A stretch of 41,011 nt of DNA from an uncultured Bacilli bacterium (lineage in GTDB: Bacteria > Bacillota_I > Bacilli_A > RF39 > UBA660). The stretch is taken from the NCBI GenBank assembly GCA_947628985.1, contig CANRCA010000003.1, positions 1 to 41,011 of the forward strand, written 5' to 3'. Each line of letters opens with the position of its first letter. Positions within the stretch are counted from its first letter, which is position 1. The translations under genes and the position numbers were made by a program. The notes under the pieces were generated by a model, which was given only the letters and a program-made list of their open reading frames with translations, was not told the origin of the DNA and did not search any database. Of the stretch, positions 6,424 through 41,011 are shown one piece after another.

Positions 6424-6480
6424 TTTGCTAACCTCCTATTATAAAAAAATTATAGCATAAACTTTTATAAAAAAAAAGAG

Positions 6481-6813
6481 TTAGTCTCTTTTAAAGTAAA
6501 TCATTTGCCCAGGCATTAAATAAATAGTTTTATTTTGATCTACTATATCTTCTTTTTTTTCATCAAAAATATCGCTTACTGTTTTTAATGTATCTCCTTC
6601 TTTTGTAATATAATAACTAACATCTTTTTTAGGAATTAATAAAGTTTGTCCAGGATAAATATAATCATCTAATTTAAGTCCATTTAATTCTGCTAGTAAC
6701 TTAGTATTTACATCATAAAATTTTGATATTTGATAAAGAGTATCACCTTTCTTTATTTCATAAGTCATATAAAATGGACTTTCTAAATCTTTCTTTATAT
6801 TTTCATCTAACAT
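6481..6813 (-). CDS. Tandem LysM peptidoglycan-binding domain protein
   Basis: YEIKKGDTLYQIS...IYPGQTLLIP plus a second repeat YITKEGDTL...LMPGQ. Confidence 0.9.
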   Translation of the reverse strand: MLDENIKKDLESPFYMTYEIKKGDTLYQISKFYDVNTKLLAELNGLKLDDYIYPGQTLLIPKKDVSYYITKEGDTLKTVSDIFDEKKEDIVDQNKTIYLMPGQMIYFKRD

Positions 6814-6855
6814 TTAATATCACCTAAAGTATTATATGTAATTTAAATTATTAGG

Positions 6856-7956
6856 TTATTTAATATATACAAACATAGTATTATCACTATTAAATGTTAA
6901 TTCATAATTATAAAATAATTTTCTATTTCCATTTAATGGTTCATATAAATAGAAATAATCTTCAAATGAATAATATAATTTGTTATTATTTTCTTTGACT
7001 ATTTTTATTTCATTATCATTTATTTTTTGTTTTAATTTATTATTTTCTTTTATTGTTTTATACATTCCATTATTAAATTCATATTTATATTTTGAATTTT
7101 CTTCATTATATTTAATTTTATTAATTTTATATTCATTTTTACTACAACTTACAAATTTTCCATTTTCATATTTAACAAAACCTTTTTCATTATTTCCAAT
7201 TATTTTAACTTTATTATTTTTAGTATTTATTTCATATAAAATAGAATATTTATTATCAAATATATATAAATTATTTTTAATATTTCCTACAAAATAAGAA
7301 TCAAAATCTAAATTATATCCAAGATTAATTGTTTTTTTATTAGAATTTGTTAAGTTTAATGATATTAATGATGTAAATTCATGCTCTTCATCATTATTAG
7401 CCATATAAATAGTATCTCCTAATAAATATGCTAAACTATTATCATATTTATCTTTTTCAAATAATACTACATTTTTATATGATTTACCATTCATAATATA
7501 ATATCCTTTATAATTCCATAATGCTATATATTCATTATCATTAAGTAAATTATAATATATAAAATCTTTATTAGGTTTTGTAGTATTTACATCTATTTTT
7601 TTATATTGTTCTAATAATGGAGAATCTATTATATTATAGTCAACAAATTCATTATCTTTATAGCATAATGGATAAGTTTCAATTCCATCGATTATAGGAT
7701 ATATACAACTAAATTCATCATCCTCTATTGTATTTATTTTTTTTATTTTTGATATTAAAAATTTTCTTTTTGTATAAACATCAAAATTATATTTTTTATT
7801 TCCATCATTTATTTCATAATAAAATCTTTTATTTTTATAAATTGTTTTAATTTGATAATTATTTAATTTATATTCAACTGTATAATTTGAAAATCCATAT
7901 TTAAATAGTATTAAAATTATACATAATAATATTGAAAAAACAAGTATTTTTTTCAT
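6856..7956 (-). CDS. Hypothetical membrane-anchored or secreted protein
   Basis: 366 aa ORF with an N-terminal signal/TM, AGGTGG RBS. Confidence 0.75.
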   Translation of the reverse strand: MKKILVFSILLCIILILFKYGFSNYTVEYKLNNYQIKTIYKNKRFYYEINDGNKKYNFDVYTKRKFLISKIKKINTIEDDEFSCIYPIIDGIETYPLCYKDNEFVDYNIIDSPLLEQYKKIDVNTTKPNKDFIYYNLLNDNEYIALWNYKGYYIMNGKSYKNVVLFEKDKYDNSLAYLLGDTIYMANNDEEHEFTSLISLNLTNSNKKTINLGYNLDFDSYFVGNIKNNLYIFDNKYSILYEINTKNNKVKIIGNNEKGFVKYENGKFVSCSKNEYKINKIKYNEENSKYKYEFNNGMYKTIKENNKLKQKINDNEIKIVKENNNKLYYSFEDYFYLYEPLNGNRKLFYNYELTFNSDNTMFVYIK

Positions 7957-34548: not shown

Positions 34549-34577
34549 TTGACAAAGCATTAAAAATATGGTATGAT
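34549..34577 (+). promoter_or_regulatory. Sigma-A promoter of ole-oapA
   Basis: TTGACA-17nt-TATGAT with extended TG; predicted start 34583-34585 coincides with the 5' strand of the RNA closing stem. Confidence 0.85.
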
Positions 34578-34582
34578 TAAAT

Positions 34583-35040
34583 GCGTATGGAGCACTATGC
34601 TAGTCAAACATACCACTAGAAGATGGGGCTAAAAATCCATTAATTGTACAAAAGTGAGACTTTATATATTTTGCTTCTTTCGCCCAGATTGGGGTGAGTA
34701 TATAATTTTAGATTTAAGGATATTATGCAATGGCATGTATATGAATCCTTTTATCAAATCGAGTGTATATGAACGTACATGTCGTGAGTGATTTATTGGG
34801 ATAGAAATTGAAAAATAAATTGCAAAAGCGAATAAAAGTGAATTATGTTTGTTTGGGAAAACCTCTAGTGTGTCTATATTATAAGGATTGAAGTGCGGAC
34901 TAAGTGGTGATCGAGTGATCATTATGGTAACAAATGATTTATAATTTTAAAGAGAAATCGCCTACGGGTAACTAAGGGTAATTATGAGAGAAATTCAACT
35001 CGACCAAAGCCGTAAAATTAATTTATAATATTCCATGCAA
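34583..35040 (+). ncRNA. ole: OLE RNA (ornate, large, extremophilic), compact variant
   Basis: GC-elevated stretch with no + strand ORF directly upstream of oapA; 5' GUAUGGAG pairs with 3' UUCCAUGC; blocks resembling OLE consensus as I recall it (CUAGU..CCACUAG, GGGAAAACCUCUAG, GGAUUGAAGUGCGGACUAAGUGGUGAUC, CGCCUACGGGUAAC). Confidence 0.88.
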
Positions 35041-35059
35041 ATTTTTTCTAGGAGATAAA

Positions 35060-35578
35060 ATGAAAGATAAATGGATCATTAAGACTTTTTTAATGACTTT
35101 TTTTATAGCATTATTTTTTAATAGTGTTTCAAATGTCATTTCAAATAAATGTAATAATTTAATAATATTAATTTTACTTGCAATATTATTTATAGCTATC
35201 GGTATTATTTTTGATATAATTGGTACTGCTGTTTTAACTGCTAAAGAATCAACTTTTCATGCTAAAAGTGCTAAAAAAATTAAAGGCTCAAAACAAGGAG
35301 TATATTTAATTAAAAATTCTAGTAAAATAGCAAGTATATGTAATGATGTTGTTGGTGATATATGTGGTATTGTTAGTGGTTCTGTTAGTGCTATTATAGG
35401 AATTACAATATCAAATACTTTTAATATATCTGTTATATTAATTACTTTAATAATAAGTTCTATTATTTCAGCGTTAACTGTTGGTGGAAAAGCAATAGGA
35501 AAAAAATTTGCTATTAAAAATAGTGATGAAATAATATTCTGTGTTGCTAAAATTATTTCTAAATTTAAAAAAGATTAA
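35060..35578 (+). CDS. oapA: OLE-associated protein A (CNNM/DUF21-like membrane protein)
   Basis: GIIFDIIG, FHA, CNDVVGDICGIVSG and LTVGGKAIGK motifs; about 4 TM; immediately downstream of the RNA. Confidence 0.9.
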   Translation: MKDKWIIKTFLMTFFIALFFNSVSNVISNKCNNLIILILLAILFIAIGIIFDIIGTAVLTAKESTFHAKSAKKIKGSKQGVYLIKNSSKIASICNDVVGDICGIVSGSVSAIIGITISNTFNISVILITLIISSIISALTVGGKAIGKKFAIKNSDEIIFCVAKIISKFKKD

Positions 35579-38441: not shown

Positions 38442-38865
38442 ATTAATTAATAAAAATAATTTAACTAATAAAGAGGAACTTAATGATATATGTAATAATA
38501 TATTTTTAAAAAAGAAAAATGTTGATACCTTCTTAATAAATCTTGATAATTATATAACGTTTTTAAAAAAATATTTAACAATAGATTATAATGATTTACT
38601 TTATATTATATTTAATACTATTAATAATGATATGTATAATTCAATTATTAAAAAAGAAAAAGAATTTAAAAAGATATTTTTATTGAAATACAATGAAAAT
38701 ATCGAATTTATATCAATTTTTATGAAATTAAAGAAAAGAAATTTTAATAATTTAATAACTCATTTAAATAATTGCAAGAGAAGATGTTATACATATTTTG
38801 AAGATATTGGTTTAAGAAATTTAAAGTTTTATTTAGCATTATTTCAAGAATTAGAAACTAAATAA
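38431..38865 (+). CDS. Hypothetical protein, overlapping the XRE gene
   Basis: About 144 aa; GAGGTG RBS within the upstream XRE gene. Confidence 0.65.
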   Translation: MINKLINKNNLTNKEELNDICNNIFLKKKNVDTFLINLDNYITFLKKYLTIDYNDLLYIIFNTINNDMYNSIIKKEKEFKKIFLLKYNENIEFISIFMKLKKRNFNNLITHLNNCKRRCYTYFEDIGLRNLKFYLALFQELETK

Positions 38866-39931
38866 ATACATCATACATATTTTTATAAGTGAAAGTTACT
38901 CTATTAGTTCCTTTCTTTTTTTCTTTTATTAAATATCCTTCTTCTACTAATTTATTTAAAACTTTATTAACTGAATTAATATGTAAATTACATTCTTTAA
39001 CTAAATCATTAGTAGTAAATACTATTTTTTTAACAATTACTGGATATACTTTATAAATAGTAGTTCCACCAATTTTATCTTTAAATTCTTCTAAGTCATT
39101 ATTGTATATTTTATTTAATTTTTTGATTTTTTTAATATTTAATAAACATTGCTCTTTAATACATTCTAAGATTGTTTTAATAAATTTATTTATATCATCA
39201 TTAGAATCAGCAGATAATAAAGTAAAATAAGTATTTTTTAAATTTTCTAAACTTTCTGATATGAATAAAATTGGAACTTCTTTTTTATAATATGATAATT
39301 GCATAGGAATAAATAATCTTCCTAATTTACCATTACTTGAAACATAAGGATGTATTTTTTCTAATTGAAAGTGTGACAAAATTACAGAAATAAAATCAGG
39401 ATCTGTATTTTCATTTATATATTCTATTAAGTTTTTCATTAAATCATTAATATCTGTATATACTGGTGGAACATATGAAACACTAGAACCAGCTAAACCT
39501 GGTTTTAATAAAAATGTTTGAATTTTTCTAAATTTTCCACTAGCTTTTGTTTTATTATTTTTTTTACAATTTATAAACATTGATTTATTTATTTTATTAA
39601 ATGTATCAATATCTATTTTTCCATTTGATATATCATTGATACCAATTAATAATGATTTTTTTAAATTATTAAATTGAATAACATCATTATTTTCTATCAT
39701 ATATGGAGTGTGAAACATATATTCTTTTTCTATTTTACTACCATCTATTTTAAATGAATAGAAAATATCAGAAGTAAATGCACATTCTAAAAATGATTTA
39801 TAATCATATGCCATGCTTTTTAAAAATCCTTTATATTCACCATAGATTTCTTCTGTTTCACATATTAATTTTATTAATTCATATGATTTATCATATTCTA
39901 AAGGTAATTTTTTTGCTTTATATGGTTCCAT
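38858..39931 (-). CDS. Fic-family protein with C-terminal winged HTH, non-canonical motif
   Basis: SFKIDG, GKFRKIQ, YVPP, HFQLEKIHPYVSSNGKLGR; C-terminal VNKVLNKLVEEGYL. Confidence 0.88.
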   Translation of the reverse strand: MEPYKAKKLPLEYDKSYELIKLICETEEIYGEYKGFLKSMAYDYKSFLECAFTSDIFYSFKIDGSKIEKEYMFHTPYMIENNDVIQFNNLKKSLLIGINDISNGKIDIDTFNKINKSMFINCKKNNKTKASGKFRKIQTFLLKPGLAGSSVSYVPPVYTDINDLMKNLIEYINENTDPDFISVILSHFQLEKIHPYVSSNGKLGRLFIPMQLSYYKKEVPILFISESLENLKNTYFTLLSADSNDDINKFIKTILECIKEQCLLNIKKIKKLNKIYNNDLEEFKDKIGGTTIYKVYPVIVKKIVFTTNDLVKECNLHINSVNKVLNKLVEEGYLIKEKKKGTNRVTFTYKNMYDVFI

Positions 39932-40001: not shown

Positions 40002-40364
40002 TTAATATGGATTTGGATAATCTAATAATCCATCACCCGAACCATTAACCCAATAAATTTTATTACCTTTAATTTTAAAATCATAATTTATTTTATATTT
40101 TTGTTTTCCATCTGTATTTTTATATATAAAAGTTATATTAGTATTTCCATTTGATTTTGGTATGAATACCCATTTATTATTTTCTTCTGTTTTTAACTCT
40201 AGATTATTATTACTTAATTCATAATACCATTTATAACCTTCTTCTTTAAAATCATATTCTATTGTAACTTGATCAGAATATTTTAATAAATAATTAGGTT
40301 TATAAAAAAATAATATAAACACAAGTAGAATAGCAGTAATTCCAAAAATTATATAATATCTCAT
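40002..40364 (-). CDS. Small membrane-anchored protein, possible chagasin/I42-like Ig fold
   Basis: N-terminal TM; GYKW...WVFIP...GNTNITFIY pattern; AAGGAG RBS. Confidence 0.65.
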   Translation of the reverse strand: MRYYIIFGITAILLVFILFFYKPNYLLKYSDQVTIEYDFKEEGYKWYYELSNNNLELKTEENNKWVFIPKSNGNTNITFIYKNTDGKQKYKINYDFKIKGNKIYWVNGSGDGLLDYPNPY

Positions 40365-40379
40365 AACACTCCTTTATAC

Positions 40380-40416
40380 ACAAAAAGCAACCAGCCCTGA
40401 TAAAGCTTGATTGCTT
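40380..40416 (-). terminator. Intrinsic terminator ending the candidate RNA
   Basis: Minus strand AAGCAAUCAAGC...GCUGGUUGCUU followed by UUUGU. Confidence 0.75.
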
Positions 40417-40608
40417 CGAGTTTTCGAAAAAAGAATTATAATCATTTATATTAAAGAATTTGGCTTTAATATAAATACTTCTAAATATTATCAGTATTTA
40501 GCATAATTTCTTATCATTTTGAGTTTTACTTTCTCAACGATATATCATTTGTCCTTAGTAGATAAGTATTCTATTTCTTAAATTAATAAGATTATTATTA
40601 TTTATACT

Positions 40609-40752
40609 TTATTGTAATTCTATACATAAATAACTAATAAATTAATATTAATTATAAACATATAAATATTATCAACAATTTTATTGTAATTTTATATACA
40701 AATAACTAATAAGTTAATACTAATTATAAATATACAAATATTATCAATAAAT
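40609..40752. repeat. Two tandem imperfect 72-bp repeats, each a long hairpin
   Basis: 40609-40680 versus 40681-40752, 63/72 identical by manual alignment. Confidence 0.92.
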
Positions 40753-40882
40753 TTTATAAATTAATAATATTATAGAATTTTTTCACACGATAATTTTTAA
40801 TATGTTTCATCAATTTAAACTAAATATTTAAATTTAATAAAAATATATAGAATACATATTTTATTATCTATTGGACAATTAT

Positions 40883-40911
40883 ATTTTATCAAGTATAAAA
40901 ATTGTTGTCAA
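40883..40911 (-). promoter_or_regulatory. Sigma-A promoter of the candidate RNA
   Basis: TTGACA-17nt-TAAAAT with extended TG on the minus strand. Confidence 0.82.
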
Positions 40912-40976
40912 CACTTTTTTGAAAATTTTGTCAATTTTTTGTTACAATTCACAGTCGATAAGAAAGAGCTAAAATA

Positions 40977-41000
40977 AAAATGTAGGAAAACCTGCATTTT
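40977..41000 (-). terminator. Probable terminator of a gene beyond the window edge
   Basis: Minus strand AAAAUGCAGG-uuuu-CCUACAUUUU hairpin (one mismatch) with U tract. Confidence 0.5.
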
Positions 41001-41011
41001 TATATGGACTT

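Follow-up and report, generated by a model that had tools for sequence, protein, structure and literature searches.

We have analyzed a predicted noncoding RNA unit on the minus strand of a contig from an uncultured Bacilli bacterium (GTDB lineage Bacteria; Bacillota_I; Bacilli_A; RF39; UBA660; GenBank assembly GCA_947628985.1, contig CANRCA010000003.1). The window is the entire contig of 41,011 bp, with 22.4% G+C, and the metagenome-assembled genome (MAG) from which it comes measures 1.06 Mb and is 67.8% complete. Judged by its sequence, the unit at positions 40911 to 40380 is a full-length, genus-specific expanded form of the PGK-motif RNA (Rfam RF03040), conserved and structured. The catalogued motif of 92 nt appears to be only the core of a larger RNA that runs from promoter to terminator, and the extension appears to be new.

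An earlier note, made from the letters alone, had proposed a possibly undescribed RNA of about 500 nt without signatures of transfer-messenger RNA, RNase P, signal recognition particle RNA or T-box. That proposal of novelty does not survive an Rfam scan, which gives a full-length PGK match in the 3' third of the unit (40573-40481, minus strand). The match scores 82.9 bits against a gathering score of 50.8 (E = 1.8e-11), covers model positions 1-92 of 92, and is the only one found in a search of the whole 1.06-Mb assembly. The alignment to the model displays helices P1, P2 and P3 together with the conserved GAGAAAG...ACUC and AAUACUGAUAAUAUU loops. P1 pairs CUUAUC (40566-40561) with GAUAAG (40515-40510); P2 (40537-40533/40523-40519), whose loop is invariant and A-rich, is the UUGAG/CUCAA hairpin of the earlier note; and P3 (40501-40495/40487-40481) is its CUAAAUA/UAUUUAG helix. 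Beyond PGK, the scan of 40200-41011 at E values up to 10 returned just six matches of 13.9 to 22.6 bits, far below their cut-offs, and no significant one to transfer-messenger RNA, RNase P, signal recognition particle RNA, T-box, 6S, OLE, ROOL, GOLLD or group II introns.

The Rfam structure line holds P1, P2 and P3 only and ends after P3. The unit in the window adds to these a 5' pseudoknot strand, a helix P4, a variable hairpin, a palindrome, an AAACU element and a terminator with a conserved loop; in the genus there is in addition a 5' insertion of about 200 to 700 nt, and the next gene is not pgk. The paper that introduced the 224 motifs (Weinberg et al. 2017, NAR 45:10811, PMC5737381) carries no mention of PGK in its main text; the motif description must stand in the supplement, which possibly draws P0, P4 and the terminator. 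No paper text on the PGK motif or RF03040 was found in the literature searched, a search that lay outside that supplement, and both the extended architecture and the reading of the unit as a stand-alone RNA appear not to be in print.

The transcription signals and helices proposed earlier are all in place. A sigma-70-type promoter (40911-40883) consists of TTGACA (40911-40906), a 17-nt spacer and the extended -10 element TGaTAAAAT (40891-40883); it scores 11 of 12 matches with the TG and is the top promoter-like site of the scan. The AT-rich stretch shows no general enrichment of promoter-like sites, with 17 found where 16.0 would be expected. In the genus alignment the promoter is kept at the same position, and a promoter with GTCC or GACC within 4-9 nt lies upstream of 46 of the 54 motif instances of the genus; four of the eight instances lacking one had less than 300 nt of upstream sequence. 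The predicted primary transcript runs from about G40876 to the U-run at 40380 (497 nt, 16.3% G+C, both ends predicted) and holds no open reading frame (ORF) of 60 aa or more, the longest being 25-33 aa. It closes with a nearly invariant AAACU (40423-40419) and an intrinsic terminator, in which AGCAAUCA (40415-40408) pairs with UGGUUGCU (40393-40386) around a 14-nt loop holding UUAUCAG (40403-40397), followed by a U-run to 40380. A simple terminator scan missed 40415-40386 because of the 14-nt loop. In the elements of the genus the terminator lies 89-155 nt past the end of the Rfam model.

The minus strand also folds better than expected by chance. The minimum free energy (MFE) of this strand is -104.5 kcal/mol (z = -5.24, equalled by 0 of 100 shuffles) and that of the plus strand -73.4 kcal/mol (z = -2.84). 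In 44 of 45 homologous elements the fold of the sense strand has the lower energy, by a mean of 23.4 kcal/mol, an excess that partly reflects its richness in U and in G over C. The unconstrained MFE fold contains the long-range helices of the earlier note, GUCC/GGAC (40876-40873/40554-40551), UAGAUAA/UUAUCUA and GUAUUCUAU/AUAGAAUAC; the 3' domain of that note, with UUGAG/CUCAA, AAGAAAUUAU/AUAAUUCUU, CUAAAUA/UAUUUAG and a perfect 13-bp stem at 40476-40444, is likewise present.

Relatives of the unit allow the structure to be tested. Among 49 other species genomes of the genus, 45 have the PGK motif, in one or two copies each; none of 24 sampled genomes from other genera of the class has it. A search with the pattern of the invariant core gave at least 120 further DNA stretches among the gut MAG assemblies listed, which are labelled uncultured Bacilli, Mollicutes, Tenericutes, Clostridium sp. 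CAG:914 or CAG:524, and similar. From the genus, 45 homologous elements of 359-981 nt were recovered from promoter to terminator; in most lineages the core unit amounts to about 290 nt by arithmetic estimate.

Two alignments were built from these sequences. The first comprises 40 genus elements of at most 520 nt (5 of the 45 were longer and were excluded, and L015 was dropped for N) under a structure of a P0 pseudoknot, a helix between block C and AUAGAA, a hairpin H5, P1, P2, P3, P4, a variable hairpin H13 and the terminator. In this set 91.2% of the cells are paired, whereas shuffles give 85.1% (0 of 500) and slid partners 36-46%, and the covariation score is 0.180 against 0.084; with the alternative pairings of the earlier note built in, the whole structure has 84.7% of its cells paired. 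The second comprises 107 distinct 3' domains of all lineages, with sequences excluded if the terminator was absent or lay more than 130 nt after P3. For P1-P4, the terminator and a loop-loop contact, the share of paired cells is 90.6% and that of shuffles 84.1% (0 of 500), with a covariation score of 0.247 against 0.134. RNAalifold on a MAFFT alignment of the family found only P2 and the loop-loop contact because the variable helices were out of register; in that alignment the terminator is 70.3% paired. Helix by helix, P1, P2 and P3 are paired in 95.0%, 93.0% and 100% of the cells of the genus (double changes at 1 of 6 pairs in P1) and in 91.3%, 94.4% and 99.7% of those of the family.

The element that ties the 5' end of the transcript to the core is P0. 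Its 5' strand is UUGUCC (40878-40873), reduced to GUCC if transcription starts at 40876, and its 3' strand is GGACAA (40554-40549), in the internal loop between the 5' strand of P1 and the palindrome. In the genus this helix covaries: all 40 elements with GUCC have GGAC, all 5 with GACC have GGUC, and in element L016 it reads GUAC/GUAC. Other lineages have UUGCUUAG/CUAAGCAA, UUACUUAG/CUAAGUAA, UUGUCUAG/CUAGACAA and CCUAGAG/CUCUAGG, with CUUAGAG/CUCUAAG, UCCUAAAG/CUUUGGGA and AUCUCGGU/GCCGAGAU as further variants. In a test of P0 the best-scoring promoter was chosen blind to complementarity, and the next 22 nt were compared with the internal loop of the same element. Of the 66 distinct cases, 45 gave at least 6 Watson-Crick pairs and 19 at least 8; for non-self pairs the shares were 15.1% and 3.9%. 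Among the tests of P0 only this one worked, which was confined to the 22 nt following a promoter picked independently. No discrimination was obtained with RNAduplex energies for the core segment and its own or foreign upstream sequences (-13.2 and -12.0 kcal/mol), or with the length of the longest helix within 400 nt upstream (8.3 bp for own and 7.7 bp for foreign sequences). The earlier idea of a matched 5' end, joining segments about 320 nt apart, is thus right for GUCC/GGAC. Since the strands come in the order P0-5', P1-5', P0-3', P1-3', P0 and P1 together form a pseudoknot.

The neighbouring segment UAGAUAA (40870-40864) had been proposed to extend this helix. It is indeed complementary to UUAUCUA (40565-40559), but this pairing excludes P1, which is kept in 95% of the cells and has a compensatory variant. 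The UAGAUAA/UUAUCUA pairing is kept in 80.6% of the cells of the genus, with many breaks, and disappears where the P1 strand becomes CUAAUC; it was seen by eye in some other lineages. It may be an alternative pairing, and five related GAUAA/UUAUC segments in the RNA permit alternative folds.

Beyond the Rfam model, the 3' part of the unit is conserved as far as the terminator. Directly 5' of P2 is a 12-nt self-complementary element, AUGAUAUAUCGU (40548-40537). Of 107 distinct family members, 96 have a 12-nt palindrome if G-U pairs are admitted, as compared with 3.2% of shuffled windows, and 104 have one of at least 10 nt. There are 23 sequence variants, for example UUACAAUUGUAA, and the asymmetric ones, GAUAUGUC, GGUAUAUC and GAUGUAUC, are G-U compatible. 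P4, which lies in part outside the Rfam model, joins AAGAAAUUAU (40512-40503) to AUAAUUCUU (40439-40431, the strand beyond the model) and closes a junction of P3 and H13. It is paired in 99.2% of genus cells, with double changes at 4 of 6 pairs, and in 92.7% of family cells, with double changes at 6 of 6 (for example UA in 54 and CG in 46). H13, the perfect 13-bp stem of the window, is a variable hairpin paired in 84.2% of genus cells with double changes at 10 of 13 pairs. The terminator is paired in 96.6% of genus cells, with double changes at 7 of 8 pairs; in an anchored per-sequence test across the family a helix of at least 9 bp was found in 106 of 107 members, in 76 variants, against 27% of non-self combinations. 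The junction helix, the 13-bp hairpin and the terminator of the earlier note thus all covary. The terminator loop motif and a T-run accompany 162 of 172 pattern instances. The ten exceptions comprise two cuts by contig ends, two broken T-runs behind an intact loop motif, one variant loop (UUUUACUAG), one with nothing evident, and four of a divergent type with a different 3' architecture. Finally, the P3 loop CUGAUAA (40494-40488) holds a 7-nt complement of the terminator loop UUAUCAG (40403-40397), the only long-range pairing that RNAalifold proposed on the family alignment.

Divergent forms of the RNA were also observed. In the same genus, a paralogue represented by L049 (G033:C2:30686-30771) and L050 (G036:C46:5580-5666) scores 41-42 bits, below the Rfam cut-off. 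It keeps P0, P1, a palindrome (UACGAUCGUA), P2, P3, P4, AAACUAGAAAUA and a terminator, all with new sequences, and has no variable hairpin. Its P3 loop is CGACUAA, its terminator loop changes in parallel with the 5' strand of P1, and it is followed by a hairpin, an TGCTATAAT promoter and an unrelated ORF. The divergent type named above (L087, L091, L107 and L167) has the P2 and P3 core words in common with the family and the G+C-richer P0 AUCUCGGU/GCCGAGAU; its 3' part is different and about 170 nt longer, with another terminator at its end, and L091, which was scanned, falls below the Rfam cut-off. Tandem units 350-1200 nt apart occur at L003, L016, L025, L028, L042 and L044. At L059, in a Clostridium sp. 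CAG:914 record, units at 6476-6567 and 6829-6918 (minus strand) are both upstream of pgk.

The 5' part of the unit is far more variable. Its domain is inserted between the two strands of P0, and its closing helix had been taken to be GUAUUCUAU (40855-40847) with AUAGAAUAC (40574-40566). That helix is present in the window, but it is kept in only 51.4% of cells over the 40 genus sequences, against 92.1% for an alternative partner of the same segment: UUCUAU (40777-40772), within block C (GUGUGAAAAAAUUCUAU, 40788-40772), pairs with AUAGAA (40574-40569) and shows double changes at 4 of 6 pairs. The block C helix closes the inserted domain with its repeats and H5, and a GUGAAAA-like counterpart of block C was seen by eye in other lineages. 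H5 itself, UCUUA-uuaauu-UAAGA (40591-40576), stands just upstream of the Rfam match; 85.3% of its cells are paired, and ACUUA/UAAGU and GCUUA/UAAGC are compensatory variants. An AU-rich hairpin at 40843-40805 also appears in the MFE fold. Between block C and H5 are two tandem repeats of 72 nt (40751-40608), 88% identical, besides a degenerate third copy; the two repeats form hairpins at 40727-40702 and 40655-40630. Each hairpin has two G-U pairs, which would be C-A on the other strand, and a UUAACU or UUAAUU loop. The two hairpins noticed earlier thus exist in the window, but they are no fixed part of the RNA: across the elements their core UAAUAUUAAUUUAUUA is present in zero to six copies, in a number that correlates with element length (r = 0.89), and 11 of 45 elements have no repeat by motif count. 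From these comparisons the 72-nt hairpins are best described as a lineage-specific expansion module and not a conserved part of the fold. An origin as a dispersed repeat or miniature inverted-repeat transposable element was considered and is unsupported; elsewhere in the genome there are only weak AT-rich matches of at most 41 bits, and the 16-nt core was found 9 times in the window with 6.5 expected. From the 5' strand of P0 to the core the distance is 215-825 nt in the genus and roughly 100-200 nt in other lineages, and insertions of 25 to 600 nt between the P0 strands are tolerated.

Such variability raises the question of whether the 5' part acts as RNA at all. It might be that only the core of about 190 nt and the terminator are functional, and that the 300 nt before them are an AT-rich spacer, folding as a by-product of duplication or low complexity, or a feature of the DNA with protein-binding palindromes (TAATA-N6-TATTA). 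AU-rich RNA folds readily, and the repeats of variable number, the poorly kept GUAUUCUAU/AUAGAAUAC helix and the lack of enrichment of promoter-like sites would all suit this account; the repeat core is a palindrome in DNA, and the second gene downstream encodes a Fic protein that has a winged-helix domain. We nevertheless consider this very improbable, since the 5' strand of P0 and block C covary with the core, the G-U pairs of the repeat hairpins would be lost on the opposite strand, the sense strand is the better folder in nearly every element, and the 12-nt palindrome stays self-complementary by way of asymmetric variants that G-U pairing accommodates.

The genes around the unit bear on its mode of action. 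On the minus strand the promoter, the 497-nt ORF-free stretch and the hairpin with its U-run are followed by a gene for a protein of 120 aa (ORF 40364-40002) with an N-terminal hydrophobic segment, whose ribosome-binding site (RBS) AAGGAG (40374-40369) begins 5 nt past the U-run and leaves no space for a promoter of its own. All Pfam matches of this protein are below threshold, including chagasin I42 at 18 bits. The second gene (38858-39931, minus strand) encodes a Fic domain (PF02661, 39 bits) and a C-terminal winged-helix-like region. The order in the genus is an [FeFe]-hydrogenase gene, at least about 350 nt of intergenic sequence, the motif, a small membrane-protein gene and the Fic/winged-helix gene; the hydrogenase gene lies outside the window because the contig stops 100 nt upstream of the promoter. 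In some relatives a separate copy of the PGK RNA precedes each of the two genes for the membrane protein and the Fic protein. The motif was named for its location upstream of the phosphoglycerate kinase gene, an association that is not part of the Rfam model. The pgk of this genome is on a different contig (C12), and the PGK RNA is not upstream of it; in other lineages pgk does follow the motif, L059 being an example.

Across lineages the downstream genes are unrelated to each other. They encode phosphoglycerate kinase, a MurG-type GT28 protein, LepA, dCMP deaminase, HU, an ABC ATPase, a sulfatase-family protein and proteins of unknown kind, at least 10 unrelated families in all. In several lineages the gap between terminator and gene contains a conserved separate promoter motif: CAUAUAAUUAUGRUAUAAU in 16 of 16 distinct murG gaps, TTGAY, about 17 nt and GTATNAT in 14 of 14 gaps before the 'KYCPNYY' genes, and an extended -10 element, TTGATATAAT, in 2 of 2 lepA gaps. 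Inspection by eye alone showed TATAAT-like boxes in the five Fic gaps and, in most of the 11 pgk gaps, a second hairpin together with such a box. This second conserved U-run hairpin (for example AAGUGCAGUA...UUGCACUU), between the terminator of the PGK RNA and the predicted promoter of the gene at pgk- and Fic-type loci, resembles a double terminator or an insulator. The promoters before P0 are themselves close to consensus, most scoring 11.5-13 on a scale with a maximum of 13.5, in which 12 hexamer matches are supplemented by bonuses for the TG and for a spacer of 17 nt. A family-wide test for an antiterminator gave 5.56 bp for self and 5.49 bp for non-self combinations, with 7-9 bp in some lineages and 5 bp (UUUCG/CGAAG) in the type of the window.

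On these grounds we lean, at slightly better than even confidence, to the reading that the PGK unit is a stand-alone structured RNA and not a riboswitch, with read-through feeding the next gene here. It is favoured most of all by the conserved separate promoter motifs downstream, and further by the varied neighbours, the one or two copies per genome, the near-consensus promoters, the tolerated insertions between the P0 strands, the lack of a family-wide antiterminator signal and the conserved terminator loop, whose complementarity to the P3 loop is not typical of the expression platform of a riboswitch. At the level of the sequence, a promoter and a terminator of its own bound a conserved RNA among variable neighbours; a coherent set of genes, as would suit an attenuator, is not found, and dependence on read-through is seen only in this genus.

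Several observations weigh against a stand-alone RNA. Rfam gives RF03040 the type Cis-reg. The first ORF of at least 70 aa is co-oriented in 106 of 118 distinct contexts, at a median gap of 54 nt, which fits either a leader or strand bias. In this genus 5-25 nt separate the U-run from the RBS, which leaves no space for a promoter; the next gene has none of its own, and the RNA must then be at least also a leader. The downstream promoters of other lineages are putative, being drawn from conserved motifs. The complementarity of the P3 and terminator loops is kept in 107 of 107 members, but it offers no covariation because both loops are invariant and are partly fixed by the search pattern and the terminator filter; in the one divergent paralogue type examined it falls from 7 to 3 contiguous pairs. 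Lastly, the single RNA run considered (5% of sampled words) gave one contig over 39900-41011, of 68 nt at 40524-40591 with 3 differences, which is uninformative on ends, strand and level and probably represents the conserved core of a relative.

The opposing account is a cis-acting attenuator or riboswitch, in which the PGK core would sense a ligand, a protein or a condition and decide the fate of the terminator at 40415-40380. In the window it would control the genes for the membrane protein and the Fic protein, and elsewhere pgk, murG and others; its switch would be the competing pairings of CUUAUC (in P1 or with UAGAUAA of the 5' end) or pairings of the terminator loop. The Rfam type, the co-oriented genes at short gaps and the lack of room for a promoter in the genus all agree with it, as do the tandem loci with an RNA copy before each of two genes, the five GAUAA/UUAUC segments, and the divergent paralogue whose terminator loop shifts along with the P1 5' strand; some lineages, moreover, have a 7-9-bp upstream copy of the 3' arm of the terminator, for example AGUUAUUU/GAAUAACU, that could serve as an antiterminator. 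Against this stand the absence of a coherent regulon for an RNA usually present once per genome, the independent promoter motifs in the murG, KYCPNYY and lepA gaps (with others seen by eye in the Fic gaps and in most of the pgk gaps) and the lack of an antiterminator signal across the family. Switches that operate during transcription, moreover, do not usually conserve the loop of the terminator or accept several hundred nucleotides between pairing partners. We regard the attenuator as a possible but rather unlikely account of the unit.

The unit can be compared with several known systems. Terminator-type riboswitches and attenuators likewise have a structured 5' region and an intrinsic terminator just before a gene, with alternative pairings possible; PGK units differ from them in having no consistent downstream family or antiterminator signal, in the conserved loop of the terminator and, in most lineages, in putative separate promoters for the genes. 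The raiA motif, named for a frequent downstream gene, was first taken as a cis-regulator and later as a stand-alone noncoding RNA of Firmicutes and Actinobacteria. It has no sequence or Rfam relationship to the PGK unit, and the likeness is by analogy only. OLE, ROOL and GOLLD resemble the unit as long, conserved, multi-helix RNAs with their own transcription signals; there is no homology to them, and the PGK core is much smaller, at about 290 nt in most lineages. Self-association has been reported for OLE, ROOL and GOLLD. By analogy, the palindrome and the loop-loop complementarity would allow PGK RNA to self-associate, multimerisation here being pure inference. An analogy to 6S RNA was also considered and dropped. 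No match to 6S RNA (RF00013) was found in five genomes of the genus (G000, G006, G015, G025 and G028), three of them about 90% complete, which shows little because the same search detects 6S in only 5 of 14 reference genomes.

Two further features of the window were observed. A full-length OLE RNA (RF01071, 216 bits) is present at 34571-35052 on the plus strand, 5 kb from the PGK unit, in this gut MAG of 22% G+C and a genome of about 1.5 Mb. The ORF directly after it (35060-35578, plus strand) has a weak match of 22.5 bits, below the cut-off, to a membrane domain of the CNNM/DUF21 type. Just upstream of the promoter of the PGK unit, at 40974-41003 (both strands), is a 13-nt inverted repeat at the end of the contig, ATAAAAATGTAGG and CCTGCATTTTTAT, with arms that are 92% complementary and 4 nt apart; it may be the terminator of an unseen upstream gene.

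Taking the stand-alone reading together with the structure, the unit would work as follows. Transcription would start at about 40876 from the sigma-70-type promoter, and the first bases, GUCC, would pair with the internal loop of the core some 320 nt downstream to form P0, in a pseudoknot with P1. The AU-rich domain inserted between the P0 strands in the genus would be closed by UUCUAU/AUAGAA and would carry the repeats and H5. The core would continue past the Rfam model, through P1, the palindrome, P2, the P4 junction of P3 and the variable hairpin, and AAACU, to the terminator. The terminated RNA of about 500 nt is likely to be the main product, stable and compact, with both ends tied into the structure, and it would probably serve as a scaffold for a conserved partner or for self-association and not as a leader that senses a metabolite. 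Since the RBS stands 5 nt past the U-run, the small membrane-protein gene 17 nt downstream would be transcribed solely by read-through past the terminator, which probably also serves the Fic-domain gene. A bolder proposal, which we offer as speculation and hold to be unlikely, is that PGK-motif RNAs, instead of being cis-regulators, form a class of pseudoknotted RNAs of about 290 nt that stand alone and are widespread in gut Bacilli with small genomes, in which the covarying palindrome and the loop-loop contact drive assembly into homodimers or higher-order complexes, and that their scaffold tolerates growth by tandem hairpins to about 1 kb.

The Rfam entry for PGK is at present an orphan 'cis-regulatory' model of 92 nt without a known ligand or function. 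If the reading of a stand-alone RNA is true, the motif would instead mark an autonomous RNA gene in many uncultured gut Bacilli, with the terminator as part of its fold. A search for a partner or for self-assembly would then make more sense than a search for a metabolite, and a full-length construct would give defined ends and compensatory mutations that can be tested. The hairpin modules of this genus, in zero to six copies, would provide a natural series for testing which parts of the RNA are dispensable.

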